A DNA stretch of 64,000 nucleotides. Origin: Malacoraja senta (lineage: Eukaryota). The notes under the pieces were generated by a model. That model was given only the letters and a program-made list of their open reading frames with translations. It was not told the DNA's origin and did not search any database. The position numbers and the translations under genes were made by a program. The stretch is taken from NCBI GenBank assembly GCA_038087875.1, contig CM075991.1:7318001-7382000 (forward strand), written 5' to 3'. Shown in pieces: positions 262-63,677 of the stretch (position 1 is its first letter; every line of letters begins with the position of its first letter).

Positions 262-416
262 GAAGGAACTGCAGATCCTGGTTTAAACCGGATAGAGTTT
301 GGAGTAACTCAGCAGGACAGGCAGCATCTCTGATAGAACGAATGGGTGACGTTTTGGGACGAGACCCTTCTTCAGACTGATGTTTCGGGTTGAGACCCTT
401 CTTCAGACAGGCTTCT
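262..416 (-). mobile_element. Penelope-like (PLE) terminal-repeat fragment with two tandem hammerhead motifs, inserted in a CR1 3' fragment
   Basis: GGAAGGAACTGCAGAT..GGAGTAACTCAGC..GACCCTTCTTCAGAC repeat seen many times in the window; flanked by 13-bp direct repeat ACAGATAGGGTAG (249-261 / 417-429). Confidence 0.7.
347..408 (-). ncRNA. Two tandem 31-nt minimal hammerhead ribozyme-like motifs (one degenerate)
   Basis: Minus strand reads GTCTGAAGAAGGGTCTCAACCCGAAACATCA GTCTGAAGAAGGGTCTCGTCCCAAAACGTCA; first copy keeps CUGAAGA/GAAA, second has GAAA>AAAA. Confidence 0.55.
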
Positions 417-1990: not shown

Positions 1991-2726
1991 ATTCTTGTAC
2001 TAGAGTATGATTGTGCCGATGTAGAGTTCACTGATCTGCATGCAAATAAGAATTTCACTGTAGCCATGTACATGTGACAATTACCATCAAATACCATTGA
2101 ACTCTTGAAGGCAGCCTTGACTGTATTTACATTTAACAGTTGATGCTTTGCGGTTTCTTCAATTCACTAAACTGGGATTAATCAAAAATGTGTGATGCAT
2201 CATAAAACGATTTCTTCAAGCTCCCATTCTAACATACGAGACAAAAAATGTAATTTTACTGAAGGTTCGTCTCATGGGATGAATGAACCCTTGAGAACGA
2301 ATCTAACTATCATAGTTTCAAATGCGCTTATATTTCTTTCTGACTTAGTTGCTTGCACTTTTGTCTCTGAAAAAGAAATTGTGGTTCAAGTATTTCTCCA
2401 GAAACATGTTTATAAATTGATCATCCCTCCAATGCTGATTAAAGGAATGCTGGACTGTGGTCCACATTTTCTTACCACATAGGAAGAAGCCATTTCACTA
2501 TACCTAATCTATGCCGACTCACAGAAATATTCCGATCCCATTTCTTGACTAATTTTACTTATAAACTATTCTCTCTCTACATTCCCCTCACCTCTCCCCA
2601 GATCCTACCCGCTCATCTACACACCACAAACAATTTGCAGCAGCTGATTAGCTCAGCAACGTGTGGGTCTTTGGGATATGGGCTTATTAGGCTTATATGG
2701 GTAGCCAGAGACAACCCATCAAAGGG

Positions 2727-3110
2727 AGATGGACACAAAATGCTGGATTAACTCAGCGGGACAGGCAGCATCTCTGGAGAGAAGGAATGGGTGACGTCTC
2801 TTTGGACTGATGTCAGGGGAGTGGGCGGTACAGAGTTAAAATATAGTCGGAGACAGTAAGACTGGTCGGACAACTGGGAAGGAGGAGGGGATGGAGAGAG
2901 AGGGAAAGCAAGGACTATTTGAAGTTAGAGAAGTCAATGTTCATACCGCTGGGGTGTAAGCTACCCAAGCAAAATATGAGGTGTTGTTCCTCCAATTTGC
3001 GCTGGGCCTCACTCTGACAATGGAGGAGGCCCAGGACAGAAAGGTCAATGTGAGAATGGGAGGGGGAGTTAAAGTGTTGAGCAGGTAGGTTTAGGCGGAC
3101 TGAGCGGGTC
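2727..3110 (-). mobile_element. Penelope-like element 3' fragment (ORF C-terminus plus terminal repeat)
   Basis: Encodes HFNSPSHSHIDLSVLGLLHCQSEAQRKLEEQHLIFCLGSLHPSGMNIDFSNFK*, resembling the C-terminal half of a PLE GIY-YIG domain; joined to the repeat that carries the hammerhead motif elsewhere. Confidence 0.75.
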
Positions 3111-3666
3111 ACAGTCACAGGGAGAATGTGCAAGCTCCGAACAGCAGCAGAGGTCAATAATGAACCCAGTTGCTGGAACGATGAGGCTAGTAGTGCTGTG
3201 TCATCCATCAAATTAAGGTCTGATCTGCTCTCTCTGGTAACCACAAAAGATTCTATGACTGGGGTAATCGCCAGAGTCCCAGACAATATTTATCTCTTAA
3301 TAATTCAAGTTAAAAGAAGTTGCAGATGCTGGAAATCTGAAATAAAATCTAAAAATGCTGGAAACACACGTGTGCAAGATAAACCCAGTTAATGTTTCAG
3401 ACAGAAGACCCAGTGAAAGATAATTACCCCTTGACCAAATTATCTGGTTGATATATCAACACGTTTTGGTCCCTTTTTTAAAAATTATTTTTCGCTTTTG
3501 TTTTCTTATTCTTTTTTAAGTTTTTACTTATTCACTCTTTGACTATACTATTCGGTAGTTTAGGGGTTTACACATTCACTATTTCTTTCACTTTCTCTCT
3601 TTCTTGCTCTTTCTCTCTTTTTCTATTTCTTCTTTGTCAAAATTAAAATGGAAGATTCTACTGCAG

Positions 3667-4272
3667 GAGCAGGGAGGTTCTACTGCAGTTGTACAGGGTC
3701 TTCGTGAGACCACACCTGGAGTATTGCGTACAGTTTTGGTCTCCAAATCTGAGGAAAGACATTCTTGCCATAGAGGGAGTACAGAGAAGGTTCACCAGAC
3801 TGATTCCTGGGATGTCAGGAATTTCATATGAGGAAAGACTGGATAGACTCGGCTTGTACTCGCTAGAATTTAGAAGATTGAGGGGGGATCTTATAGAAAC
3901 TTACAAAATTCTTAAGGGGTTGGACAGGCTAGATGCAGGAAGATTGTTCCCGATGTTGGGGGAGTCCAGAACAAGGGGTCACAGTTTAAGGATAAGGGGG
4001 AAATCTTTTAGTACCGAGATGAGAAAACCATTTTTTACACAGAGAGTGGTGAATCTGTGGAACTCTCTGCCACAGAAGGTAGTTGAGGCCAGTTCATTGG
4101 CTATATTTAAGAGGGAGTTAGATGTGGCCCTTGTGGCTAAAGGGATCAGGGGGTATGGAGAGAAGGCAGGTACAAGATACTGATTGGGGATGATCAGCCA
4201 TGATCATATTGAATGGCGGTGCAGGCTCGAAGGGCCGAATGGCCTACTCCTGCACCTATTGTCTATGTTTCT
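3667..4272 (+). mobile_element. Young CR1 LINE 3' fragment (same family as 21626-24707)
   Basis: ORF 3689-4183 (VRPHLEYCVQFWSP...) nearly identical to the end of the 23673-24611 ORF; same 3' UTR and CTATGTTT-type tail. Confidence 0.95.
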
Positions 4273-8790: not shown

Positions 8791-8942
8791 CCCACTGATT
8801 TAAAAACTGCTGCTTTAACCTACACAGGGGTATCTTACACTAGCCTATCACCTACACCTTTGAATTAAAATAAATGCTGCTGATGCGAGAAACCTAAAAT
8901 AGAAACAAAACATGCTGAAAAACCTAGCATCTGTGGGAAGAG

Positions 8943-9759
8943 TATAGAAGAGAGATCGAGCAACTGTCCATATGGTGCCAGCACAATAACCTGGCCCTCA
9001 ACACCAGCAAAACCAAGGAACTGATTGTGGACTTTGGAAGGAGTAGGATGGGGACCCACAGTCCCGTTTATATCAACGGGTCGATGGTTGAAAGGGTCAA
9101 GAGCTTCAAATTCCTGGGCGTGCACATCTCTGAAGATCTTTCCTGGTCCGAGAACAATGATGCCATTATTAAGAAAGCACATCAGCGCCTCTACTTCCTG
9201 AGAAGATTACGGAGAGTCGGTTTGTCAAGGACGACTCTCTCTAACTTCTACAGGTGCACAGTAGAGAGCATGCTGACCGGTTGCATCGTGGCTTGGTTCG
9301 GCAACTTGAGCGCCCTGGAGAGGAAAAGACTACAAAAAGTAGTAAACACTGCCCAGTCCATCATCGGCTCTGACCTCCCTTCCATCGAGGGGATCTATCA
9401 CAGTTGCTGCCTCAAAAAGGCTGGCAGTATCATCAAGGACCCACACCATCCTGGCCACACACTCATCTCCCTACTACCTTCAGGTAGAAGGTACAGGAGC
9501 CTGAAGACTGCAACGACCAGGTTCAGGAACACCTACTTCCCCACAGCCATCAGGCTATTAAACCTGGCTCGGACATAACACTGAACTTTATTAGCCAATA
9601 CTGTTATTTGCACTTTATCAGTATATTGATTCATGTGTGTATATATTTATAGAATGCCTTGTAGTCAATGCCTACTATGTTCTGTTGTGCTGAAGCAAAG
9701 CAAGAATTTCATTGTCCTATCAGGGACACATGACAATAAACTCACTTGACTTGACTTGA
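8943..9759 (+). mobile_element. Rex1/Babar-clade LINE 3' part (RT C-terminus, 3' UTR, (TTGAC)n tail)
   Basis: Open frame EYRREIEQLSIWCQHNNLALNTSKTKELIVDF...FKFLGVHI...QRLYFLRRL...LLPSGRRYRS; GAAGAG flanks both ends. Confidence 0.85.
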
Positions 9760-13430: not shown

Positions 13431-14152
13431 GGGACATTCCCCTGAATTTTTGGGCACATTTTTGGGCACATTTTTAATCCTCAGCTGGCATAGCCAGAAA
13501 TTACATATTATATGGGCTAATGCCTTTTTTTTTTTTTTAATGTTTCTGAGACTTTTTCAATGAATAAAATCAAACATTTGGCTGAAATCACAGAAATTCG
13601 GAAGCAAAACCCATGCCTTTTTTACACTGGACTTGATCTGTTCTTGACTTTGGTCTCTCACAAGGCGTTTGCGCTTGTGCTCACCCTTTGCTTTTGTTGT
13701 CCTGTGGCCATTCAATGAGCGAAAGATGTCTGCAACAGGCAACAGGGCTGTAGATGGTACAAGCTAAGACCCTGCCCACAAATTACCCCATGAAACAACT
13801 GGCGAGAGGCACAGTCAATGAACACAAAAGTAATAAAAAATATTAAAACCAGCTTCAACATAGAAATTAATTTAAAACTTTTATATATTACAAAAAGTAA
13901 AACATAAAGTCTTGGCATCATCTACCTTTTCAGTGAAAATCAACAACACCGTTTAAATGAATGGTGTTTTTAAAAAAAGCTGAGAGGCCAGATGTAAAGA
14001 AAGCCCATAGACTCGCTGATGAGTGTAAGAGCAGAATAAAAGGTCAGATGTGCCAAATCAGACCCCTGGTGCATTCTGTGCTTTCACAGTGCATTGCATA
14101 GAGTTGGGAGGTGTGGAAGACACTGTAGCTAGCCAGCAATCCTCTCTCTGTG

Positions 14153-14469
14153 GATAGACACAAAATGCTGGAGTAACTCAGCGGGACAGGCAGCATCTCT
14201 GGAGAGAATGAATGGGTGACGTTTCGGGTCAAGACCCTTCTTCAGACTCCAGATCCACGCCCTCAACAAACGCACTTGCTCTGACTCTCCTGCAGCTCCG
14301 GGCCTCATTCATCCAGACATGCAATGGACCCCAACTGTACTTCATTCGACACCAGATCGACGCCCTCAACAAACGCACTTCTCTCCAGAGATGCTGCCTG
14401 TCCCGCTGAGTTACTCCAGCTTTAGTGTCTGTCTTCGGTTTAAACTAGCATCTGCAGTTCCTTCTCACA
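14153..14469. mobile_element. Palindromic mini-PLE insertion with internal coding-like filler
   Basis: Inverted arms; perfect 16-bp direct repeat CAATCCTCTCTCTGTG (14137-14152 / 14470-14485). Confidence 0.8.
14216..14247 (-). ncRNA. Minimal hammerhead ribozyme motif
   Basis: GU CUGAAGA A GGGU CUUG ACCC GAAAC GUC AC. Confidence 0.65.
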
Positions 14470-19090: not shown

Positions 19091-19488
19091 GTGTTTAAGA
19101 AAGAACTGCAGATGCTGGAAAAATCGAAGGTAGACAAAAATGCTGGAGAAACTCAGCGGGCGAGGCAACATCTATGGAGCGAAGGAATAGGTGACGTTTC
19201 GGGTCGAGACCCTTCTTCAGTGAATCAGTGAATATTCATATATTCATATCCTCACCTGGCCAGCACTGGCTACTCATTTCCTGGTTGAAAGATATGGCAT
19301 TGAAACAGCCCCTTTGGCCCACAGCTCTCCCTCAGCCCTCTGGCTCCTCCTTTTCCTTTCTTCTTCCCACACCCCCCCCCCCACCCTACATCAGTCTGAA
19401 GAAGGGTTTCGGCCCAATACGTTGCCTATTTCCTTCACTCCATAGATGCTGCCGCACCCGCTGAGTTTCTCCAGCACTTTTGTCTACC
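19091..19488. mobile_element. Inverted PLE terminal-repeat pair with intervening filler
   Basis: Minus copy 19091-19220 ends in an intact hammerhead motif; plus copy 19325-19488 has GAAA>AATA. Confidence 0.7.
19191..19220 (-). ncRNA. Minimal hammerhead ribozyme motif
   Basis: CUGAAGA A GGGU CUCG ACCC GAAAC GUC AC. Confidence 0.65.
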
Positions 19489-20085: not shown

Positions 20086-20433
20086 AATGCTCATGTATTC
20101 TAGTTAACACTGTGTACCATTATGTTTTGAATGTTACCTACAGTCTCAGCAGAGGTGACAAAGATTTCACTTTGTACAATGCACTTGCCTCCGCTGGGAC
20201 GAGGTGGCATTAGCAGGACATTCTGATGGAGATCCAGTCACTGGCAGTGGACCAGCATAGGATAGTTGTGGCTCTGTTGCACTTCCAATGTGTTCAAGAA
20301 CAACTTTGGAATGAGATGCATTTCTGCAGACAGGAAGGGAAAAAAACACATCCAGATGAGAACTAAGGGAAAACCGAAGATAGACACAAAATGCTGGAGT
20401 AACTCAGGCAGCATCTGTGGATAGAAGGAATGG

Positions 20434-20465
20434 GTGACGTTTCGGGTCGAGACCCTTCTTCAGAC
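20434..20465 (-). ncRNA. Minimal hammerhead ribozyme motif (consensus copy) in PLE repeat 20372-20465
   Basis: GU CUGAAGA A GGGU CUCG ACCC GAAAC GUC AC, with all catalytic-core nucleotides present. Confidence 0.7.
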
Positions 20466-20827: not shown

Positions 20828-21616
20828 GGGACAGCACGGTGGCGCAGCGGTAGAGTTGCTGCCTCACAGCGACAGAGACCCGGGTTCAATCCTGACCACG
20901 GGTGCTGTCTGCACAGAGTTTGTACGTTCTCCCTGTGACCTGCGTGGTTTTTCTCCGGGATCTCCGGTTTCCTCCCACACTCCCAAAGACGTACAGGTTT
21001 CTATGTTAATTGGCTTGGAATAATTGAAAATTGTCCCTAGTGTGTGTAGGATAATGTTATGGGCCTGTCCCACTTAGGCTATTTTTAGGCGACTGCCAGC
21101 GACTGTCATAGTCGTAGCAGGTCGCCGAAAAACCAGCGACTGAACCCCCCTTCGACATAAAATTTGTAATAGAATCATACTTAAACAACAACAAAAAAAT
21201 GAAGTCAGCACCGGCGACAACCTACGTCATCCTGGTGACAACCTACGTCATCCTGGTCACAAGCTACGACAGCATCTACGTCAGGAGAAGTCAAGCTACG
21301 CTCATTGGCGTCAAGCCAACTGTCGCCGACTGTCGCCGAAAAGTTTGAACATTTCAAAATCCAGCAGCGACTAGAAAAACGCTCCGATTCTTTGGGCGAC
21401 TGAGGTCACTACTCACGACCATACAGGCGACCATACTGGCGACCACACAGGCGACCCCAGCGACCATGTGGCGACAGCCTAGTCGCCTGTAGTCACCTAA
21501 AAATTTGCCTGTGGGACAGGGGCATTAATGTTTGGGGATCACTGGTCAGCGTGGACTTGGTGGGCTGAAGGGTCTGTTTCCATGCTGTATCTCTACACTA
21601 AGCTAATCTAACCTAA
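20828..21616 (+). mobile_element. HE1-like V-SINE interrupted by MITE #3
   Basis: SINE sequence resumes after the duplicated TTA. Confidence 0.85.
21060..21524. mobile_element. PIF/Harbinger-type MITE (#3)
   Basis: TGGGCCTGTCCCAC.. / ..GTGGGACAGGGGCA TIRs; TTA at 21057-21059 and 21525-21527. Confidence 0.9.
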
Positions 21617-21625
21617 AATGTGCTG

Positions 21626-24600
21626 AGGTGGTGGGGTTCTTAAATGGGTGAGCAGAGAAACAGAGGGGTGTAAAATGCGGGCGGAAGCAATAGGTAGCAA
21701 GGTGAAAAGTAAAAGTGGCAGGCAGACAAATCCAGGGCAAAAATCAAAAAGGGCCACTTTTCAACATAATTGTATAAGGGGTAAGAGCGTTGTAAAAACA
21801 AGCCTGAAGGCTTTGTGTCTCAATGCAAGGAGCATTCGTTATAAGGTGGATGAGTTGAACGTGAAGATAGCTATTAATGATTATGATATAGTTGGGATCA
21901 CGGAGACATGGCTCCAGGGTGACCAAGGCTGGGAGCTGAACATCCAGGGATATTCAATATTCAGGAGGGATAGAGAGAAAGGAAAAGGAGGTGTGGTAGC
22001 ATTGCTGGTTAGAGAGGAGATTAACGCAGTGGAAAGGAAGGACATTAGCTTAGAGGATGTGGAATCGGTATGGGTAGAGCTGCGAAACACTAAGGGGCAG
22101 AAAACGCTGGTGGGTGTTGTGTACAGGCCACCTAGCAGTAGTAGTGAAGTTGGGGATGGCATCAAACAGGAAATTAGAAATGCGTGCAACAAAGGCAAAA
22201 CAATTATAATGGGTGACTTCAATCTACATATAGATTGGGTGAATCAAATTGGCAGGGGTGCTGAGGAAGAGGATTTCTTGGAATGTATGCGGGATAGTTA
22301 TCTAAACCAACATGTAGAGGAACCAACGAGAAAGCAGGCTATTCTAGACTGGGTATTGAGTAATGAGGAAGGGTTAGTTAGCAGTCTTGTTGTGCGTGCC
22401 CCCTTGGGCAAGAGTGACCATAATATGGTTGAGTTCTTCATTAGGATGGAGAGTGACATTGTTAATTCAGAAACAACGGTTCTGAACTTAAAGAAAGGTA
22501 ACTTTGAGGGTATGAGACGTGAATTTGCCAAGATTGACTGGCAATTAGTTCTAAAGGGGTTGACGGTGGATATGCAATGGAAGGCATTTAAAGACTGCAT
22601 GGATGAACTACAAAAATTGTTCATCCCAGTTTGGCAAAAGAATAAATCAGGGAAGGTAGTGCATCCGTGGAAAACAAGGGAAATCAGGGATAGTATCAAA
22701 GCAAAAGATGATGCGTACAAATTAGCCAGAAAAAGCAGCATACCAGAGGACTGGGAGAAATTCAGAGACCAGCAGAGGAGGACAAAGGGCTTAATTAGGA
22801 AAGGGAAAATAGATTATGAAAGAAAACTGGCAGGGAACATAAAAACTGACTGCAAAAGTTTTTATAGATATGTGAAGAGAAAGAGATTAGTTAAAACAAA
22901 TGTAGGTCCCTTGCAGTCAGAAACAGGTGAATTGATCATGGGGAACAAGGATATGGCGGACCAATTGAATAACTACTTTGGTTCCGTCTTCACTAAGGAA
23001 GACATAAATAATCTGCCAGAAATAGCAGGGGACCGCGGGTCAAAGGAGATGGAGGAACTGAGTGAAATCCAGGTTAGTCGGGAAGTGGTGTTGGGTAAAT
23101 TGAATGGATTAAAGGCCGATAAATCACCAGGGCCAGATAGGCTGCATCCTAGAGTACTGAAGGAAGTAGCTCCAGAAATAGTGGATGCATTAGTGATAAT
23201 TTTTCAAAACTCTTTAGATTCTGGAGTAGTTACTGAGGATTGGAGGGTAGCAAACGTAACCCCACTTTTTAAGAAGGGAGGGAGAGAGAAAACGGGGAAT
23301 TACAGACCAGTTAGTCTAACTTCGGTAGATGAGAAACTGCTAGAGTCAGTTATTAAAGATGGGATAGCAGCACATTTGGAAAGTGGTGAAATCATTGAAC
23401 AAAGTCAGCATGGATTTACGAAAGGTAAATCATGTCTGACGAATCTTATAGAAATTTTCGAGGATGTAACTAGTAGAGTGGATAGGGGAGAACCAGTGGA
23501 TGTGTTGTATCTGGACTTTCAGAAGGCTTTCGACAAGGTCCCACATAAGAGATTAGTATACAAACTTAAAGCACATGGTATTGGGGGTTCAGTATTGATG
23601 TGGATAGAGAACTGGCTGGCAAACAGGAAGCAAAGAGTAGGAGTAAACGGGTCCTTTTCACAATGACAGGCAGTGACTAGTGGGGTACCGCAAGGCTCAG
23701 TGCTGGGACCCCAGCTATTTACAATTTATATTAATGAACTGGATGAGGGAATTGAAGGCAACATCTCCAAGTTTGCGGATGACACTAACCTGGGGGGCAG
23801 TGTTAGCTGTGAGGAGGATGCTAGGAGACTGCAAGGTGACTTGGATAGGCTGGGTGAGTGGGCAAATGTTTGGCAGATGCAGTATAATGTGGATAAATGT
23901 GAGGTTATCCACTTTGCTGGCAAAAACAGGAAAGCAGACTATTATCTAAATGGTGGCCGATTAGGAAAAGGGGAGATGCAGCGAGACCTGGGTGTCATGG
24001 TACACCAGTCATTGAAAGTAGGCATGCAGGTGCAGCAGGCAGTGAAGAAAGCGAATGGTATGTTAGCTTTCATAGCAAAAGGATTTGAGTATATGAGCAG
24101 GGAGGTTCTACTGCAATTGTGCAGGGTCTTGGTGAGACCACACCTGGAGTATTGCGTACAGTTTTGGTCTCCAAATCTGAGGAAGGACATTATAGCCATA
24201 GAGGGAGTGCAGAGAAGGTTCACCAGACTGATTCCTGGGATGTCAGGACTTTCATATGAAGAAAGACTGGAGAGACTTGGCTTATACTCGCTAGAATTTA
24301 GGAGATTGAGAGGGGATCTTATAGAAACGTACAAAATTCTTATGGGGTTGGACAGGCTAGATGCAGGAAGATTGTTCCCGATGTTGGGGAAGTCCAAGAC
24401 AAGGGGTCACAGCTTAAGGATAAGGGGGAAATCCTTTAAGACTGAGATGAGAAAAAACATTTTCACACAGAGAGTGGTGAATCTCTGGAACTCTCTGCCA
24501 CAGAAGGTAGTTGAGGCCAGTTCATTGGCTATATTTAAGAGGGAGTTAGATGTGGCCCTTGTGGCTAAAGGGATCAGGGGGTATGGAGAGAAGGCAGGTA

Positions 24601-24707
24601 CGGGATACTGAGTTGGATGATCAGACATGATCATATTGAATGGCGGTTCAGGCTCGAAGGGCCGAATGGCCTACTCCTGCACCTATTTTCTATTTATCTA
24701 TTTATCT
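21626..24707 (+). mobile_element. CR1-clade LINE, 5'-truncated, whole ORF2 retained
   Basis: APE endonuclease plus RT ORF, 3' UTR with microsatellite tail; candidate 8-bp TSD ATGTGCTG (21618-21625 / 24708-24715). Confidence 0.95.
21648..24611 (+). pseudogene. CR1 ORF2 (apurinic endonuclease + reverse transcriptase) with one in-frame stop at 23664-23666
   Basis: Motifs NARSI, GITETWL, VYRPP, MGDFN, LDWV, SDH, KSPGPD, NYRPVSLTS, LDFQKAFDKV, SGVPQGSVLGP, FADD; ORFs 21648-23666 and 23673-24611 are in the same frame; true start uncertain. Confidence 0.93.
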
Positions 24708-29150: not shown

Positions 29151-29182
29151 GTCTGAAGAAAGGTCTCGACTTGAAACATCAC
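29151..29182 (+). ncRNA. Minimal hammerhead motif variant in PLE repeat 29151-29248
   Basis: GU CUGAAGA A AGGU CUCG ACUU GAAAC AUC AC; stem II still pairs (A-U, G-U, G-C, U-A). Confidence 0.55.
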
Positions 29183-30262
29183 CCATTTCTACTCTCCAGA
29201 GATGCTGCCTGTCCTGCTGAGTTACTCCAGCTTTTTGTGCCTATCTTCTGCTGCTGTGTTTATTTCTATGTGCTGTTTGCTGGTCAGATAACTCTCCTTG
29301 TGTGTTGGATACAAAAGCATGGCAATTAATGTATAAACCAAAGAGGAACAGCGAACCTTGAGTGCTAAGTACACATTTGGCACCTGTTGTTCTGAGTCGA
29401 TAATTGGAGTCACACTGCAATATTTGCAAGAAGAGTTGGAAATAGTTTTTAAATTGCTCAGGCTCAATTTTTGGACGTGATCTGCGCTGCAAAATTAAGG
29501 GGGCTAAAAGAAGTTAGCACAAAACACAGGGTGCAGTGCCAAGCTTGTTTCCAGTAACAAGTCTCCCATTATCCCATGTAACTCTAGAGATAAGTTCATC
29601 CAGAGCTTTTGTGAACATTCAGGTATTAACGGTGCTAAGTCCCAATCTGGTCTTAAATGATGCGGCTTTATACGGCAGCAGGGCCTTGCAGAGCATAATG
29701 CTTTAATCCAGGCAGGCAAAGAAACGGCTGTATTTCTTTTGTTGACATCCATCTAAACCGTAGTCCCAGCTTAACCAACTGTTGAACATATAAAACACCT
29801 CAAATGTTTCCCAATATTTCTTGCATTCACAAACATCGAAGGACATTTAGCTGGCACACTCCCAGTGTGATTCCCCGGAGAGATGCAGTATTTCAATGGT
29901 CTGCCATTGTATGTGGTCCGCGTTGGTTATTTGTTAGCACAACCTCAGTCAAGAAAGGCCTTCATTCAGGATAAGCACATGTTGTATTTAGTTCAAGAGT
30001 ACTCTAGACTGAAAGGTTAACGCTAATCTGTGCTTGGTAAACGTGCTGTGATCATTCTGATAAAGAATACCTGTGAATATTTGTGTAAAAATGCAAGAAA
30101 TAGGACTCCTGTTGAGAATTCATCTTATTTCTGAACTTGCTAATGTAAATGGTCACTGTGTTTTAATCCAAACTTCACTCAAAAGCTACTGAGAATCTGC
30201 GACTAAAACCAGCAAACGTAAACTAAATTGAGTATTAATCAAGATGGAACGTCCAAACAATT

Positions 30263-31555: not shown

Positions 31556-31587
31556 GTCTGAAGAAGGGTCTTGACCCGAAACATCAC
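31556..31587 (+). ncRNA. Minimal hammerhead motif in PLE repeat 31556-31652
   Basis: GU CUGAAGA A GGGU CUUG ACCC GAAAC AUC AC. Confidence 0.6.
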
Positions 31588-31921
31588 CGATTCCTTCTAT
31601 CCGGAGATGCTGCCTGTCCCGCTGATTTACTCCAGCATTTTGTGTCTTTCTTAATTTATTTTAGAGTTATAGAGTCATGCAGCATGCTAGCATGCTCTTT
31701 GGCCCAATTTCCCTAGGCCGCATCTACACTAGTTCCACCTACCTGCATTTGGCTCATATCCTAAATCTTTCCTATCGATGTACCTGTCCAAATGTCTTTT
31801 AAATGTTGTTAAAGTACCTGCCTCAACTACCTCCTCTGGCAGCTCATTCCATGTACCCATCACTTTCTGGGTAAAATGTTTATTATTATTTATTTTCCTG
31901 CTTTTTGTATTTCATGGGAGG

Positions 31922-38515: not shown

Positions 38516-38547
38516 GTCTGAAGAAGGGTTTCGGCCCGAAACGTTGC
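38516..38547 (+). ncRNA. Minimal hammerhead motif, UUCG-loop subfamily, at the start of a 94-bp PLE insertion (38517-38610) inside a V-SINE
   Basis: GU CUGAAGA A GGGU UUCG GCCC GAAAC GUU GC; insertion flanked by TTCCCTGTG (38508-38516 / 38611-38619). Confidence 0.7.
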
Positions 38548-39217
38548 CTATTTCCTTCGCTCCATAGATGCTGCCTCACCCGCTGAGTTTCTCCAGCACT
38601 TTTGTCTACCTTCCCTGTGACCCTGTTCTGTGTCTAGGATGTGAAAGTCGGCTGATATAGAACTCGTGTGAATTGGAGATTGATGGTCTGCATGGACTCA
38701 TTGGGCCGAAGGGACGGTTTCCATGTTGTGTCTTTCAATCAAGTTACCTCAATATACCAATAAACAATGTCGTTTGAAGTAGGCTCAACAACATTGTACA
38801 AAATTGATACCAGAACCGAGTTTATAACTGTTAGAAAAGATTTAACAGGATACAGCTCTTTTCCAGAAGGCTAACATTTGTAAAGGTCATATCAAAAAGA
38901 AAGCCAATCACAAGGGCTCACTTCTAGAGGAATAGAAATTAAAATTAGGAAGCCTATATCGACTCTTGGTTTGGTTACATCATGTTTAGTGTACAGTATA
39001 AAGAAAGGAATGCAAATCTGGTTGCTACATTATAAATGAACATAAACCTACAGGAGAGTGAGACAAGAATGAGACTGGAAGAGCCAGACTGGGTCTCTGT
39101 TCTCTGGAGAAAAACGGGCAGAGGGATGGTCCAACGCAGACCATGACTGAGTTGAAATGTTTTGATATTGTGGAAACAGAAAGAGTGATTTGATTTGAGG
39201 AGCAGAGTTTAACAAGA

Positions 39218-39449
39218 AGATGGACACGAAAAGCTGGAGTAACTCAGCGGGTCAGGTAGCATTTCTGGAGGAAAGGAATGAGTGACATTTTGGGTCAAGA
39301 CCCTTCTTCAGAAGAAGAGTCTGAAGAAAGGTCTCGACCCGAAATGTCACAAATTCCTTTTCTCAAGATATACTGCCTGACCCGCTGAGTTACTCCAGCT
39401 TTTCGTGTCTATCTTCGGTGTAAACCAGCATCTGCAGTTCCTTCCTGCA
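39218..39449. mobile_element. Palindromic mini-PLE insertion with head-to-head hammerhead motifs
   Basis: About 95-bp inverted arms centred near 39315; flanked by CAGAGTTTAACAAGA / CAGAGTATAACAAGA (39203-39217 / 39450-39464) inside an old CR1 fragment. Confidence 0.8.
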
Positions 39450-40061
39450 CAGAGTATAACAAGAGTCCATCAGTAAAGTATCGAAAAGGCACGAAGAAAC
39501 CAATTTAGCAGCTCAGGAGAAACTCCTGTACTTTTAGAGTGCTATGAACATAGAACTTAATCCCACAGGGAATTTGAATTGAAAGTGTAGATGTACTTCC
39601 ACGGAGGTTGCTCAGGCAAATGGGAGAAGGCTATGATGATAGATTTAGAATAGCAAGGATGGGAATAACTTTGAATTAGAGTATGTTCGCCAGCAAAGGT
39701 AAATGACCTGTTTATGTCACATGTAGGGCAGTTCGGTGGTGCAGCTGGTAGTACTGCTGCCTCACAGCTTTGGTTAACCTGGATTGAATGCTGACGTCCA
39801 GGGCTACAGACATGGAGTTTGCACATTCTCCCTGAGACCTGTGCCTTGGATTTCTCCCACGTCCCAAAGATATATAATTGTCGACTGTAAATTGATGCTA
39901 GTGTGATACTGGATAATGGGGAGTTGCCTGTGTTGAAAGAAGAGGTCACAGGGAAATGTGAAGGAATGGGACTGAAGGGATTGATCTGAGAGCCAGCGTA
40001 AACGCGATGGGCCAAATGGCCTTCAAGCAATTCACACCCATCTTGTGAGGAAATAAGACAA

Positions 40062-42907: not shown

Positions 42908-43215
42908 GTGTCGGAAGGAACTGCAGATGCTGGTTTCCACCGAAGATAGACACAAAATGCAGGAGTAACTGAGAGCACCTGTCCACTGTCAGAGTGAGGC
43001 CCAATGCAAATTGGAGGAACAGCCCCTCATATTTTGCTTGGGCAGCTTACAACCCAGCGATATAAATATTAATTTTTCTAACTTCAAGTAACCCTTGCTT
43101 TCCCTCTCTCTCCCTCCCTCCCCACCCCACCCTAGTTCTCCAACTAGTTTCACTATCCTTCTGATTAATTTTACTGATTGTATGCCTCCTTGTCACCTTC
43201 CCCTCAGCTAACAAA
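42908..43215. mobile_element. PLE fragment: inverted terminal repeat joined to ORF C-terminus/3' UTR
   Basis: Plus peptide HCQSEAQCKLEEQPLIFCLGSLQPSDININFSNFK* preceded by the inverted repeat end. Confidence 0.75.
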
Positions 43216-45569: not shown

Positions 45570-46630
45570 CATTGCCAGAGTGAGGCCACAACCTGATGGA
45601 TAAGCATCTCATATTCCACTTGGGTAGCTTACAACACAACGGTATAAACATTGAATTCCCCAATATTAAGTAACATAACCCCCCCCTCCTCACCTTCACC
45701 ACCTCCCCTTTTCCACCCCCGCCCCACCCTGTGCCCCCATCAGGACTCGCACCTATTTGTCCCCCCCTCCCTCTTTGCTTCCACCTACATTAATTCGTCT
45801 AGCTTCACAGTTCACGACTCTTCAATCTCTTCTGTCTCACACTTTCTTTCTTTTCATCTCTGGAATTTGTTCAGCCATCTGCCTATCACAGTGGCACAGC
45901 GGTAGAGTTGCTGCCTTACAATGCCAGTGACCTGCGTTAGATCCTGACTACAGGTACTGTCTGTAAAGAGTTTGTATATCCTCCCCGTGACCTGTGTGGG
46001 TTTTCCTCCTACAGTCCAAAAACATACAGGATTGTAGGTTAATTGGCTTGGTAAAATTGTTCCTAGTGTGGGTAGGATTTAGTTATGCTGCTTCCTTCGC
46101 ATGGAACCAGCTGCAGAATGAACTGAAACTTAAGGAGCTGGTTTCTATAAACAGATTTAAATCCCTTCTTAATGATGTTGAAGCGGGCTCTTCTGTCTGT
46201 ACATGCTTTGTTTGATGATATTCTGACTGTGACTCTATTTATATGTTCTCTGTTGTTTTTAAATTATTGTCTGTAACTGTGGAACTGTGCTGCTGCCTGT
46301 CTTGGCCAGGACTCTCTTGTAAAAGAGATTTTTAATCTTAATGAGACTTCTGCTGGTTAAACAAAGGTTAAAAAAATAAAGAAAAAAAAAGAAGAAAAAA
46401 AAAGGATAGTGTTAGTGTGCAGGGATGGCTGATCAACGCGGACTCCGTGGGCCGAAGGGCCTGTTTCCGCGCTGTGTCTCGAAACTAAACTAAACCCCTC
46501 CTCACCTGTATCCACCTATTACCTGCCAGGCTTTTTCTGGCCCATCTTCTCTTTCAGCATTCTTTCCCCTCACCTACAATCAGTCTAAAGAATGGCCCTG
46601 ACTCGAAACATTACCTATCCACGTTCTCCA
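45570..46630 (+). mobile_element. PLE 3' fragment interrupted by a V-SINE (45889-46494) that is itself interrupted by an L2 fragment
   Basis: CQSE..HLIFHLGSLQHNGINIEF ORF end, UTR, degenerate hammerhead motif at about 46582-46615. Confidence 0.65.
46079..46402 (+). mobile_element. L2 3' end of the teleost RSg-1-like type with A-rich tail
   Basis: FSYAASFAWNQLQNELKL..FKSLL..CTCFV* then CTTGGCCAGG..TGTAAAAGAGATTTT..CTGGTTAAACAAAGGTTAAAAAA; AGGAT duplicated (46074-46078 / 46403-46407). Confidence 0.7.
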
Positions 46631-46669
46631 GTAACAAATATATTATTGCGCCAACATCAGAAAACATCA

Positions 46670-57346: not shown

Positions 57347-57460
57347 TTAATGCTATTCTGTAAAAAATTCCAGATTTTTTTTTCAGTAACATTGATAATA
57401 AAGCATGTGTAGGTCGAGACCCTTCTTCAGTCTCTGATAGATACTTCAGATTTTGATAGA

Positions 57461-57492
57461 GACTGAAGATGGGTCTCGACCCGAAACGTCAC
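57461..57492 (+). ncRNA. Minimal hammerhead motif in inverted PLE repeat 57412-57590
   Basis: CUGAAGA U GGGU CUCG ACCC GAAAC GUC AC. Confidence 0.6.
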
Positions 57493-59473
57493 CCATTCCT
57501 TCTCTCCAGAAATGCTGCCTGTCCCACTGAGTTACTCCAGCTTTTTATGTCTCTTCGGTTTCAACCAGCATCTGCAGTTCCTTCCTACGCAATATTTCTA
57601 GATTGTGTCAGGAGGGAACTTGTTGATTTGACATGCTCTTTCTCTCAGCCTCTTATCTTTGAAGCAGATGACATGATCTTTAATAAATTAGCATGATTTG
57701 ATTATCTAACCCACTAATTCCATTTCCTCCTCCATCCATAGTTCACAACTCCCTCACGCAGTTCCCCTGGCTATGTCATCACATCAAATAAAATTGTTAA
57801 AAAAGCAGCAAGAATGACAGGGGGAAGAAAATATCAAAGGGATGTCAAAACTGGTTCTTTGTACATTTTCTATTGACTGATTTAAAAAAAAGTGTATGAT
57901 TCTTCAATCAAGGTATATGGAAGTTGGCTGGTAAAATAGACTCAAATCAAAGGGTTAGCTATGATCTTACAGAGTGCAGATCAGGTTTGAGGTGGCATTT
58001 GGCTTTTTGGTTTTATTTCTACTGTTCACAATTGACGATGGTGCAGCCAAGCAGTAGCTGTTATTTAAGATGAAGTTTCCTTAATTACTAGAATATCTTT
58101 CTTTCATTGTCTCTTCACTCCCTCGTCACTAAACTGTCTAGCTGAACGGCAAGACAGAATCAATGGTCAATGCTGCTTATATTATTGATTTGGGTTTTGT
58201 TTATTGTCACGTATACCGAGGTACAGTGAAAAGCCTTTGTGTGCATGCATGTTGCATGTGTGAAGTGCTAACACAATGAGATTATTTTACATACAAACAG
58301 TCCTGTAGAGTATTTGCATTCCCCTGATCCCCGATTAGCAAGTGTACAGAAACAGTCCACTGAGTCCGTATGCAAGAGGCTCCAGGTTTTGGTGCCATTT
58401 TCAAAGTCCACTCTCTAGTTCTTGTGAGCGGTGCCTGTTCCAGGCGACTCCCAGGCTGTTGCGGGGCCTCCAGCCATCTCCTTCGTTGGACGCCACGTCC
58501 TTCTCCTCGCCCGTCCACCTTTGTGCCCCTTTGGGTCCTCCCACAGCTGACCACGGGGTTCCCTCTCCTCTCCTACTGCTCCTCGCCCGTCTTCGCTAGC
58601 TCCATCCTCCCGGTCTCTGGTCTTCGGTGGACAGGCAGGGGGAGGCAAGGAAGACCTCCCCCTTCGAGGCTGGCGGCCAATCTGGTCCAACGTGTTTAGA
58701 TAGACTGGGTTTTGCTGAGTGCATCTCACTATTCACACTCACCACAGTAGTATACATTTCTTGGAATACTTACCCGACTTGAATTTGATGGTATTCTGAA
58801 CAGTGTGTCCGTCCGTAATTGTAAGAGCTTGCATAGATGACTGTTATGCAGAAAGGCCAGAATAAACCCTTCCTAATGTCTGTGGTAGCTTGTTGAAGCT
58901 GTTGTGTTCATGATGCTTAACATTGTTAAAAGTAAAAAGTGTCAAATTCGACGCCAGGGTCGGGTGAGCGGGCGTATGGAAGGGCAGTGGGATATATCTC
59001 CGCTTCTTTCACTCTTTCGTTAGTTCTGGTTTTTTTCTTCTTTTTTTTCCGTGTTTTTCCTGAAACTCTTTCTTTTCTTTTCTTTTCTTCTTTCTTTCCC
59101 TTTTTTCCTTTTTAAATTAAAAAATTAAAAAATGTTAAAAGTGTAGCGGACCCCCCCCCCCCCCCCAAGAGCCGAAGGTTATGTACAGTGCATGGCCCAT
59201 CACCCAATGCCGCAACAAAAGAATATTTAAACATTTTAATCAGTCAGAAATTGCAATCACTTAAAACCATTTAAAATAATTAAAAACATTTGTAATGAAC
59301 ATACATAATTATAGAAACATAGAAACATAGAAAATAGGTGCAGGAGTAGGCCATTCGGCCCTTCGAGCCTGCACAGCCATTCGATATGATCATGGCTGAT
59401 CATCCAACTCAGTATCCCATCCCTGCCTTCTCTCCATACCCCCTGATCCCTTTAGCCACAAGGGCCACATCTA

Positions 59474-61103
59474 CAGTGGCTTGCAAAAGTATTCACACCC
59501 CTTGAACTTTTCCACATTTTGTCACGTTACAACCACAAACGTAAATGTGTTTTTTTGGGATTTTATGTGATAGACCAACACATACTGGCGCATAATTGTG
59601 AAGTGTAAGGAAAATGATACATGGTTTTCAAATCTTTTTACAAATAAAAAACTGAAAAGTGTCGCGTGCAAAAGTATTCAGCCCCCCTGACTCAGTACTT
59701 TGTAGAACCACCTTTCGCTGCAATTACAGCTGCAAGTCTTTTGGGGTATGTCTCTACCAGCTTTGCACATCTAGAGACTGAAATGTTTGCCCATTCTTCT
59801 TTGCAAAACAGCTCAAGCTCAGTCAGATTGGATGGAGAGCATATGTGAACAGCAATTTTCAAGTCTTGCCAGAGATTCTCAATTGGATTTAGGTCTGGAC
59901 TTTGACTGGGCCATTCTAACACATGAATATGCTTTGATCTAAACCATTCCATTGTAGCTCTGGCTGTATGTTTAGGGTCGTTGTCCTGCTGGAAGGTGAA
60001 CCACCGCCCCAGTCTCAAGTCTTTTGCAGACTCTAACAGGTTTTCCTCCAAGATTGCCCTGTATTTGGCTCCATCCATCTTCCCATCAACTCTGACCAGC
60101 TTCCCTGTCCCTGCTAAAGAAAAGCATGTCCACAGCATGATGCTGCCACCACCATGTTTCACAGTGGGGATGGTGTGTTCAGGGTGATGTGCAGTGTTAG
60201 GTTTCCGCCACACATAGCGTTTTGCATTTAGGCCAAAAACTTCAATTTTGGTCTCATCTGACCAGAGCACCTTCCTCCACATGTTTGCTGTGTCCCCCAC
60301 ATGGCTTGTGGCAAACTGCAAACGGGACTTCTTATGGCTTTTTTTCAACAATGGCTTTCTTCTTGCCACTCTTCCATAAAGGCCCGATTTGTGGAGTGCA
60401 TGACTAATAGTTGTCCTGTGGACAGATTCTCCCACCTGAGCTGTGGATCTCTGCAGCTCCTCCAGAGTTACCATGGGCCTCTTGGCTGCTTCTCTGATCA
60501 ATGCTCTCCTTGCCCGGCCTGTCAGTTTAGGTGGATGGCCATGTCTTGGTAGGTTTGCAGTTGTGCCATACTCTTTCCATTTTCGGATGATGGATTGAAC
60601 AGTGCTCCGTGAGATGTTCAAAGCTTGGGATCTTTTTTTATAACCCAACCCTGGTTTAAACTTCTCCACAACTTTATCCCTGACCTTTATCCCTGACCTG
60701 TCTGGTGTGTTCCTTGGGCTTCATGATGCTGTTTGTTCACTAATGTTCTCTAACAAACCTCTGAGGCCTTCACAGAACAGCTGTATTTATACTGAGATTA
60801 GATTACTCACAAGTGGACTCTATTTATTAATTAGGTGACTTCTGAAGGCAATTGGTTGCACTGGATTTTATTTAGGGGTATCAGAGTAAAGGGGGCTGAA
60901 TACTTTTGCACGCGACACTTTTCAGTTTTTTATTTGTAAAAATATTTGAAAACCATGTATCATTTTCCTTCCACATCACAATTATGCGCCACTTTGTGTT
61001 GGTCTATCACATAAAATCCCAATAAAATACATTTAAGTTTGTGGTTGTAATGTGACAAAATGTGGAAAAGTTCAAGGGGTATGAATACTTTTGCAAGCCA
61101 CTG
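59474..61103 (-). mobile_element. Complete Tc1/mariner transposon, IR/DR type, 1630 bp
   Basis: About 220-bp TIRs starting CAGTGGCTTGCAAAAGTATTCA with the TGCAAAAGTATTCA motif repeated at their inner ends; TA duplicated at 59472-59473 and 61104-61105. Confidence 0.97.
59692..60724 (-). pseudogene. Tc1 DD34E transposase, frameshifted by a 13-bp tandem duplication
   Basis: WSDETK, FQQDNDPKH and SPDLNPIE with 34 residues between D2 and E; ATG at 60724 (MKPKEHTRQVRDK); CTTTATCCCTGAC repeated at 60672-60684 and 60685-60697. Confidence 0.93.
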
Positions 61104-63149: not shown

Positions 63150-63419
63150 TAACTATTTCTTAAACGTTGGGATAGTCCCAGCCTCAACTACCTCCACACA
63201 CCCACCACCCTTTGTGTGAAAATGTTACCCCTCAGATTCCTATTAAATTCAGATTCAGATTCATGTCATGGAATCTCATTACACGTGACAATAATAATAA
63301 GTAAACAAAACTAAATTAAACTAATTCTGTGGATTTGGAGTTGTTAATTTACACTGAACAGCATTGCAGGTGCACTGTCAGTAGTACTATTCTCCACTTG
63401 AGACATTAAACAATGATAG

Positions 63420-63663
63420 TTTCAGAAAGAACTGCAGATGCTGGAAAAATCGAAGGTAGACAAAAATGCTGGAGAAACTCAGTGGGTGAGGCAGCATCGA
63501 TGGAGCGAAGGAATAGGTGACATTGTGGGTCGAGACCCTTCTTCAGACCCTTCTTCAGACCCTTCTTCAGACCCTTCGCCGAGACCCTTCTTCTTATTCA
63601 CCTTTTCCTTCGCTCCATAGATGCTGCCTCAGCCGCTGAGTTTCTCCAGCATTTTCGTCTCAC
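63420..63663. mobile_element. Palindromic mini-PLE insertion with amplified hammerhead half-core
   Basis: Inverted arms; perfect 14-bp direct repeat TTAAACAATGATAG (63406-63419 / 63664-63677). Confidence 0.8.
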
Positions 63664-63677
63664 TTAAACAATGATAG

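Follow-up and report, generated by a model that had tools for sequence, protein, structure and literature searches.

The hammerhead-like motif at 20436-20463 on the minus strand of the window (the whole 64,000-nucleotide stretch of Malacoraja senta DNA analyzed here) is in all probability a minimal hammerhead ribozyme (min-HHR) motif in the terminal repeat of a Penelope-like element (PLE), and the copies in the window are short or truncated insertions, for which uncleaved RNA is the likely template and which probably cannot cut host transcripts. Of its identity we have little doubt: the repeat is the pseudo-LTR (pLTR) of a Neptune-type PLE that encodes a reverse transcriptase (RT) and a GIY-YIG domain, and its motif, a minimal type I hammerhead, likely functions in the RNA of the element itself. 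Such motifs were described in 2014 in the pLTRs of metazoan PLEs, including Xena, Poseidon, and Neptune of fish (Cervera and De la Pena, PMC4209133). The presence of min-HHRs in PLE pLTRs is therefore established and high copy number has precedent, so that the present family is a further case.

The focal motif, a member of subfamily A, reads GU-CUGAAGA-A-GGGU(CUCG)ACCC-GAAA-CG-UC-AC. It comprises the core, an extra A, stem II (GGGU/ACCC), the ACGU palindrome, and a GUC triplet, with cleavage predicted between 20436 and 20435. The solo pLTR holding it (20371-20465, minus) starts 2 nt before C3, carries an 8-nt internal deletion, and has no target site duplication (TSD) that we could find. An nhmmer profile search recovered 46 pieces of this pLTR repeat in the window, and all 15 positions at which the first-pass annotation had placed the motif turned out to be copies of one repeat. 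The PLE min-HHR core, CUGANGA ... GAAA ... UH, is present in eight window copies with its columns invariant in the alignment, and the motifs also have the G10.1-C11.1 stem II and the unpaired nucleotide after A9. The same eight copies had been described as intact in their core; all of them do keep the core, a 4-bp stem II, and the UH, but only five keep ACGU, and only three (14216, 20434, and 38516) keep the 2-bp stem I besides. Apart from the focal copy, these three are a minus-strand pLTR at 14145-14248 (intact motif at 14218-14245, with ACGU and 2-bp stem I) and a plus-strand subfamily B pLTR at 38516-38618 (GGGU-UUCG-GCCC, GUU), which has its intact motif at 38518-38545 and a 9-bp TSD. ACGU is also kept at 19121-19220 (minus), where the motif at 19193-19220 lacks the 5' arm of stem I, and at 57411-57588 (plus), a pLTR with tail whose motif at 57463-57490 has no stem I and which includes a short inverted hammerhead piece at 57411-57436. 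Copies 378, 29151, and 31556 carry ACAU instead, the product of CpG decay. They correspond to a pLTR at 300-409 (minus), in which a 31-nt direct duplication of the hammerhead has left two damaged copies (one with ACAU, the other without G12), and to two plus-strand solos, one at 29151-29251 with a decayed motif and a 12-bp TSD and one at 31556-31657 with an intact core and the decayed palindrome.

Two further insertions are head-to-head twins. The first (39213-39450) joins a minus-strand pLTR (39213-39312) to a plus-strand pLTR with tail (39315-39450), has an imperfect outer TSD of about 14 bp, and holds two decayed motifs; the second (63419-63667) is flanked by an outer TSD of 14 bp and contains a 12-nt tandem of the 5' half of the motif. 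At three places (2727-3110, 42908-43215, and 45570-46630) the first-pass annotation had seen the repeat joined to the C-terminal coding sequence of GIY-YIG. These junctions do belong to the same element as the motif, but none of the three holds an intact hammerhead. At 2721-3110 (minus), a 5'-truncated PLE retains a GIY-YIG C-terminal coding remnant (stop at 2915), the 3' UTR, and a pLTR (2721-2800) without the motif's 5' half. At 42908-43215 (plus), the remnant (about 42984-43091, plus) follows an inverted pLTR 3' end with tail (42908-42973, minus) and has no hammerhead. At 45570-46631 (plus), an old remnant with its 3' UTR is broken up by other repeats and ends in a decayed motif at 46582-46631.

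The rest of the window is rich in other mobile elements. A Tc1/mariner transposase frame at 59692-60720 (minus), open over 342 aa with PF01498, PF25787, and PF13358 above cut-off, is apparently intact and hence probably young. A near-full APE-RT LINE ORF2, which we take to be CR1-like, lies at 21627-24611 (plus) in adjoining frames of 679 and 314 aa (PF14529, PF03372, and PF00078); 3' remnants occur at 3647-4183 and at other sites. A tRNA-like SINE family, presumably HE1-like, is the second dominant short repeat, with one copy at 20828-20977 and at least 13 more, and at 8928-9578 (plus) a 216-aa C-terminal remnant with a PF09004 match represents another retroelement family. No host gene is evident among the 58 ORFs of at least 100 aa, inspected by eye and in three cases by domain scan.

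The motif is real and very abundant. In the 1.94-Gb assembly, a single exact 30-mer was counted 14,022 times and its reversed control not once; descriptor matches, at 27 in 400 kb of sampled DNA, are far above chance (2 Mb of Markov-3 sequence gave 3 and reversed sequence none). A sample of 1 Mb (100 stretches of 10 kb at round-number positions on large contigs) contained 480 pLTR fragments and 73 motifs with core, stem II, and UH, of which 52 also had ACGU and 42 the 2-bp stem I as well. Extrapolated to the genome, this gives about 0.93 million pLTR fragments and approximately 142,000, 101,000, and 82,000 motifs at rising stringency, with Poisson intervals that ignore clustering and small contigs. 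The very high copy number that had been suspected is thus borne out, at an extrapolated 0.9 million fragments and 100,000 intact minimal motifs. The density of one motif per few kilobases is not: intact motifs number 52 to 73 per Mb, i.e., one per 14 to 19 kb, and a spacing of 2 kb applies to pLTR fragments in any state. These estimates exceed the 4,000 motifs of coelacanth and the 9,000 of Xenopus given in PMC4209133, whose accessible text names no cartilaginous fish among the hosts.

Clustering of the 309 near-full copies among the 480 fragments yielded four groups. Subfamily A (CUCG loop, GUC) is about 10% diverged; subfamily B (UUCG loop, U-G pair, GUU) is about 8% diverged and takes in the young long copies; and subfamilies C and D, both with a CCCG loop, are older (18 to 20% diverged). 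We consider subfamily B recently active because it includes many near-identical long copies (L078, L079, L082, L086, and others) with frames of up to 1,026 aa. The core is identical across all four groups. Stem II had been said to vary while keeping its pairing; inside this genome, however, the variation amounts to wobble (U-A to U-G) and decay, and true covariation appears only among distant relatives (see below). The supposed variant AGGU-CUCG-ACUU belongs to a single decayed copy (29151) and does not represent a family. The fastest decay of genomic copies affects CpGs, two of which are essential (C11.1-G12 and C15.2-G16.2). At non-CpG sites the core is substituted at about half the rate of the flanks (p of about 0.02 in each of three groups), a result to which we give little weight, since local alignment favors matches at the 5' edge and differences among unresolved subfamilies are counted in the flanks. 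Contig runs from four other organisms (4 of the 19 listed, the contigs being uninformative on start, end, strand, and level) vary at the same positions as here, with none in the core among the rows listed. In a separate context, a pLTR fragment without hammerhead is embedded in another repeat with shared flanks (L160, L162, L182, and L185, at about 1490-1560). Because of these flanks, and because such fragments account for about 40 of the first 100 listed matches to a pattern enriched for broken copies (by eye), we conclude that a different element has captured and amplified the piece.

The parent element can be followed directly in the assembly. A query with the GIY-YIG tail from the window returned 81,722 first-look candidates, a figure that is not a copy number, and a search with an RT piece found open frames of up to 1,026 aa. 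From 150 scored RT matches, we assembled a set of 20 long-ORF loci, picked mostly for their long frames. A pLTR follows the ORF on the same strand in all 20, which, together with the recurrence of the motif in relatives, upholds the proposal of a minimal type I hammerhead in a PLE pLTR; in 5 of the 20, two direct pLTRs lie 3.8 to 4.1 kb apart as partial tandems, in which two motifs are separated by 3.9 to 4.1 kb. Loci L078 and L079 match PF00078 (RT, E value of 6.5e-6) and PF01541 (GIY-YIG, E value of 0.0012) in one frame, both below the gathering cut-offs; homologs have the same RT and GIY-YIG families, the best named ones being shark and ray proteins with 58 to 68% identity, which points to an elasmobranch host. 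In long copies the motif sits 112 to 117 nt past the stop of the ORF for RT plus GIY-YIG and 163 nt ahead of the next unit's ATG, and the pLTR may be followed by a tail of about 35 nt. The hallmarks of EN+ PLEs are thus present: partial tandems, pLTRs, inverted copies, and a 30- to 40-bp tail.

Placement in the Neptune clade is provisional and based on the linker. The element has a CX4CxxC linker upstream of GIY-YIG; a CX2-5CxxC linker in this position marks Neptune and Nematis (PMC8557442), and the PLE clades reported for vertebrates are Neptune and Poseidon (bioRxiv 10.64898/2026.07.22.740005). Like the Neptune-clade EN+ PLEs of Craig et al. 2021 (PMC8557442), our element has a single ORF with RT followed by a C-terminal GIY-YIG, the CX2-5CxxC linker, and a CCHH motif, and it shares with them the partial tandems that form pLTRs, the inverted 5'-truncated copies, and the optional 30- to 40-bp tail. 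It differs from the elements described there in its long N-terminal region with a proline-rich stretch, the frame reaching about 1,230 codons in L082.

We next considered whether the likeness to a hammerhead might be a matter of chance inside an ordinary repeat. An Rfam scan of the window returned no hammerhead family among its 8 matches at E values of up to 5, and stem II shows no double compensatory change within this genome, both of which would fit such an explanation. Relatives of the element argue strongly against it. Among 80 related loci from metagenome contigs, 49 matches reached the C terminus, and 41 of these had at least 250 nt downstream; the motif was found on the sense strand in 17 of the 41 and on the antisense strand, used as a control, in none. 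These 17 belong to elements only 41 to 51% identical in protein, yet the motif lies at the same place, 93 to 138 nt after the ORF in 15 of them. Although the descriptor did not require any of these, the extra A, G10.1-C11.1, and a 2-nt stem III are present in every one of the 17. The remaining 24 loci had no descriptor match, although a relaxed look found a variant in two. Covariation was examined on an alignment of 15 distinct relatives and three copies from this genome: pairing holds in 93% of cells, both partners change in 8 of 10 pairs, and G-C occupies 10.1-11.1 in 18 of 18 sequences. The covariation score was 0.654, compared with 0.205 for shuffled alignments, and none of 500 shuffles reached it, although the score is inflated by a descriptor that demanded pairing. 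A chance resemblance, to which we would assign virtually no probability, is refuted by the motif and its compensatory changes in these relatives.

The same relatives clarify the finer structure. The stem III proposed by the first-pass annotation is indeed palindromic, with ACGU found in subfamilies A, B, and C and a CG/UA covariation among the relatives, in which ACGU alternates with AUAU. The extra nucleotide after A9 had been counted as a caveat and is no such thing, since PMC4209133 names the nucleotide between 9 and 10.1 as conserved in PLE min-HHRs and all 17 relatives have it. Our motif agrees with the min-HHR of that paper in its core, the unpaired nucleotide 9/10.1, G10.1-C11.1, and the palindromic 15.2-16.2 without loop 3, as well as in its pLTR location and in the prevalence of single dispersed copies, with pairs either about one element length apart or inverted. 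It differs in its helices: stem I has 2 bp and a mismatch, compared with 4 to 5 bp in Schistosoma, and stem II has 4 bp, compared with 7 to 8 bp (PMC4209133). The 2 bp of stem I are followed by a 2x2 mismatch (A-C, C-Y) and, in long copies, by a possible 2 to 3 bp, whereas 16 of the 17 relatives have 3 to 6 bp. Judged from this short stem I, the present lineage may cleave poorly or not at all. Metazoan min-HHR monomers have been found inactive and dimers weakly active (PMC4209133), and dimer cleavage is attributed to Luense et al. 2017 in a review (PMC6765202). RNAfold predicts that naked pLTR RNA does not form stem II, whose pairs reach a probability no higher than 0.04 in the pLTR context. 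In all subfamilies stem II (e.g., 20444-20455, minus, in the window) is part of a near-palindrome of greater length, through which pairing of two motifs is predicted at -24 kcal/mol, compared with -13 kcal/mol through ACGU alone; a dimer with an intermolecular stem II is therefore possible in these models.

To learn how the short copies arose, we turned to their ends. Of 306 core-bearing copies, 232 have no upstream UTR: 74 have one, 58 are inverted, and 174 look like solos, of which 99 remain as true solos once inverted remnants are removed. Solo pLTRs as such are known (PMC3846280). Positions were counted from C3 in 222 well-preserved copies of 463 aligned. The 5' ends of 105 of these copies fall between -7 and +4, at the hammerhead's 5' edge, and those of another 45 between +5 and +21, in the palindromic stem II. 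A pile-up at the cleavage site, as a fossil of cleavage, was not found (5 of 222 at +27 to +30, compared with 21 of 222 at +31 to +45). Copies broken at +21 to +33 showed mixed junctions by eye, uncounted, among the first 100 listed of 4,330 and of 1,700 enriched-pattern matches. The 3' ends peak at about +95 and +131, and loose ends at -6 to -2 were seen in all four of the contig runs from other organisms. TSDs of 9 to 18 bp were detectable in only 22 of the 222 copies, the focal copy not among them, while the 215 controls yielded one; 19 of these 22 copies have their start at -6 to +4. Since the 5' ends lie at the hammerhead's edge, away from the cleavage site, the short copies were probably made mostly from uncleaved RNA.

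The closest precedent is PAc, a Poseidon element of Anolis carolinensis, in which internal initiation of reverse transcription defines the tail, both strands are extended, the HHR is assisted by protein, and the substrate is predominantly RNA that has not been processed (Frangieh et al. 2024, PMC11167929). The two elements share a pair of 3'-end positions about 35 nt apart, an HHR in the pLTR, and the lack of any sign that cleaved RNA is the main template. PAc belongs to another clade, and its ORF starts inside the HHR with RT starting inside the ORF; here, the ATG lies 163 nt after C3 and both 3' ends are in the 5' UTR. By analogy with PAc (PMC11167929), we infer an origin of the short copies from uncleaved RNA, whose 5' end would lie near the TCAGT at the motif's 5' edge. 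An internal promoter in the pLTR is known from Drosophila Penelope (PMC2377424). That the transcript starts at the edge of the hammerhead's own stem I is, on the sequence evidence, about an even bet. Against this start site, the 5' ends scatter over about 10 nt and no extra cap-derived G was seen among the true solos; a sharp start might give one.

The pile-up could instead stem from joining at the DNA level, from the near-palindrome TCAG-T-CTGA priming itself, or from copying of an antisense template, all of which would leave the identity of the motif unchanged. We regard this as rather unlikely, though a serious contender. The near-palindrome lies exactly at the pile-up, several twins pivot there, the second group of ends (45 of 222) falls in another palindrome, that of stem II, and palindromes at inverted PLE junctions have been read as self-priming on an antisense template (PMC3846280). 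True solos with TSDs and unrelated DNA upstream nevertheless have the same boundary, as seen in the 99 true solos and in 19 of the 22 copies with TSDs, and they have no second arm to anneal.

Still less probable is that the boundary is a splice acceptor, with the pyrimidine-rich 3' UTR and the CAG before UCUGAAGA ending an intron and the short copies deriving from spliced RNA. A polypyrimidine tract followed by CAG does stand immediately 5' of the motif, and the intron of Drosophila virilis Penelope ends at the 5' end of helix I (PMC4209133). The 99 solos, however, share no upstream exon: the five matching pairs are three local duplicates or inversions and two weak matches to one duplicated site. 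In addition, the ends spread over about 10 nt rather than falling on a single base.

Orientation speaks to a third alternative, in which the short repeat would be an independent non-LTR retrozyme that spreads as tandem units via circular RNA. Non-LTR retrozymes derive from PLE pLTRs and have been found in one chondrichthyan genome (bioRxiv 10.64898/2026.07.22.740005), and they reach up to 120,000 copies in axolotl (PMC7229834). Like the present repeat, they are short, non-coding, related to PLE pLTRs, and equipped with a type I hammerhead (PMC7229834; bioRxiv 10.64898/2026.07.22.740005). Retrozymes form head-to-tail tandems and typically have canonical HHRs and circular RNA, whereas the present copies stand alone or as head-to-head twins, with ends that take no account of the cleavage site. 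Neighboring fragments form 81 head-to-head, 17 direct, and 6 tail-to-tail pairs, and only four direct pairs with two hammerhead regions occur among the 480 fragments. Short tandem arrays of pLTR pieces do exist (L028:2753-2930 and L032:131-712), with a 66- to 67-nt unit that starts at GAAAC, but these are without the motif's 5' half and look like microhomology duplications instead of retrozymes. As subfamily B, moreover, matches autonomous elements, we give an independent retrozyme hardly any credence.

Our preferred account thus remains that of a PLE whose short insertions come from uncleaved RNA. In the parent element, a partial-tandem transcript would carry two motifs, which would pair through the ACGU palindrome, probably helped by the element's protein; cleavage after GUC or GUU would then free RNA of unit length, and is probably slow and dispensable for insertion. 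To make a short copy, the endonuclease would make a staggered cut, leaving the TSDs of 9 to 18 bp, and reverse transcription would have an internal start, either where the pLTR ends (about +95 from C3) or where the tail does (about +131), and would stop at the RNA's 5' end, most likely a few bases before the core at TCAGT, which we take to be initiator-like from the consensus. Priming from one DNA end would yield a solo of 100 to 135 nt and priming from both ends a head-to-head twin. The resulting copies would have lost distal stem I, would have no partner in cis, and would decay at the two essential CpGs.

The first-pass annotation had also raised the possibility that intronic copies cleave host pre-mRNA. 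The genome would offer ample opportunity for this, with an estimated 80,000 to 140,000 formally intact motifs, 31 of them in our intragenic sample (40 stretches of 10 kb, 400 kb in total, between exon matches of 24 myosin and kinesin genes). Head-to-head twins occur often, as do copies near one another, and retrozymes of Xenopus, though defined from tandem families, are reported to be depleted from introns (bioRxiv 10.64898/2026.07.22.740005). Inside these 24 genes, however, neither strand bias nor depletion was found. The pLTR fragments are split into 97 sense and 99 antisense, and intact motifs at rising stringency into 16:15, 11:13, and 9:9; the 95% confidence interval of the sense fraction is 0.26 to 0.67, so small numbers could hide a modest effect. 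Fragment density is 490 per Mb inside genes, compared with a sampled average of 480 per Mb. Structural considerations point the same way, as direct pairs in cis are rare, one motif of each head-to-head twin is antisense, and stem II is predicted to misfold. Furthermore, monomers of published metazoan min-HHRs were inactive (PMC4209133), and one min-HHR needs its element's protein (PMC11167929). It is therefore very improbable that the dispersed copies act as ribozymes on host pre-mRNA and cleave it when intronic and in sense orientation; they likely do not cut host gene transcripts.

In the main texts of the papers that our search covered, largely open-access ones, we found no report that deals with hammerheads in PLEs of elasmobranchs or with 5' ends piling up at the motif, and no biochemical study of a Neptune-clade element. 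A hammerhead motif is to be expected in PLEs, and the value of this family lies in the material that it offers on what PLE hammerheads do: the genome combines young, near-intact elements with short insertions numerous enough for mapping the points at which copying begins and ends. The ends of these insertions suggest that cleavage is not a step on the main route to insertion. The absence of strand bias in introns is informative as a negative result: about 100,000 formally intact motifs appear to be tolerated by a vertebrate genome, in keeping with monomers being inactive in cells. It seems to us evenly balanced whether the PLE reaction has left its genomic record in the roughly one million stubs, with a start at stem I, internal reverse transcription from 95 or 131 nt downstream, both target ends primable, and the ribozyme uncut on the template. 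If it has, a map of their ends would give the transcript start, the start sites of reverse transcription, the stagger of the cut, and an upper bound on germ line cleavage for a Neptune element.
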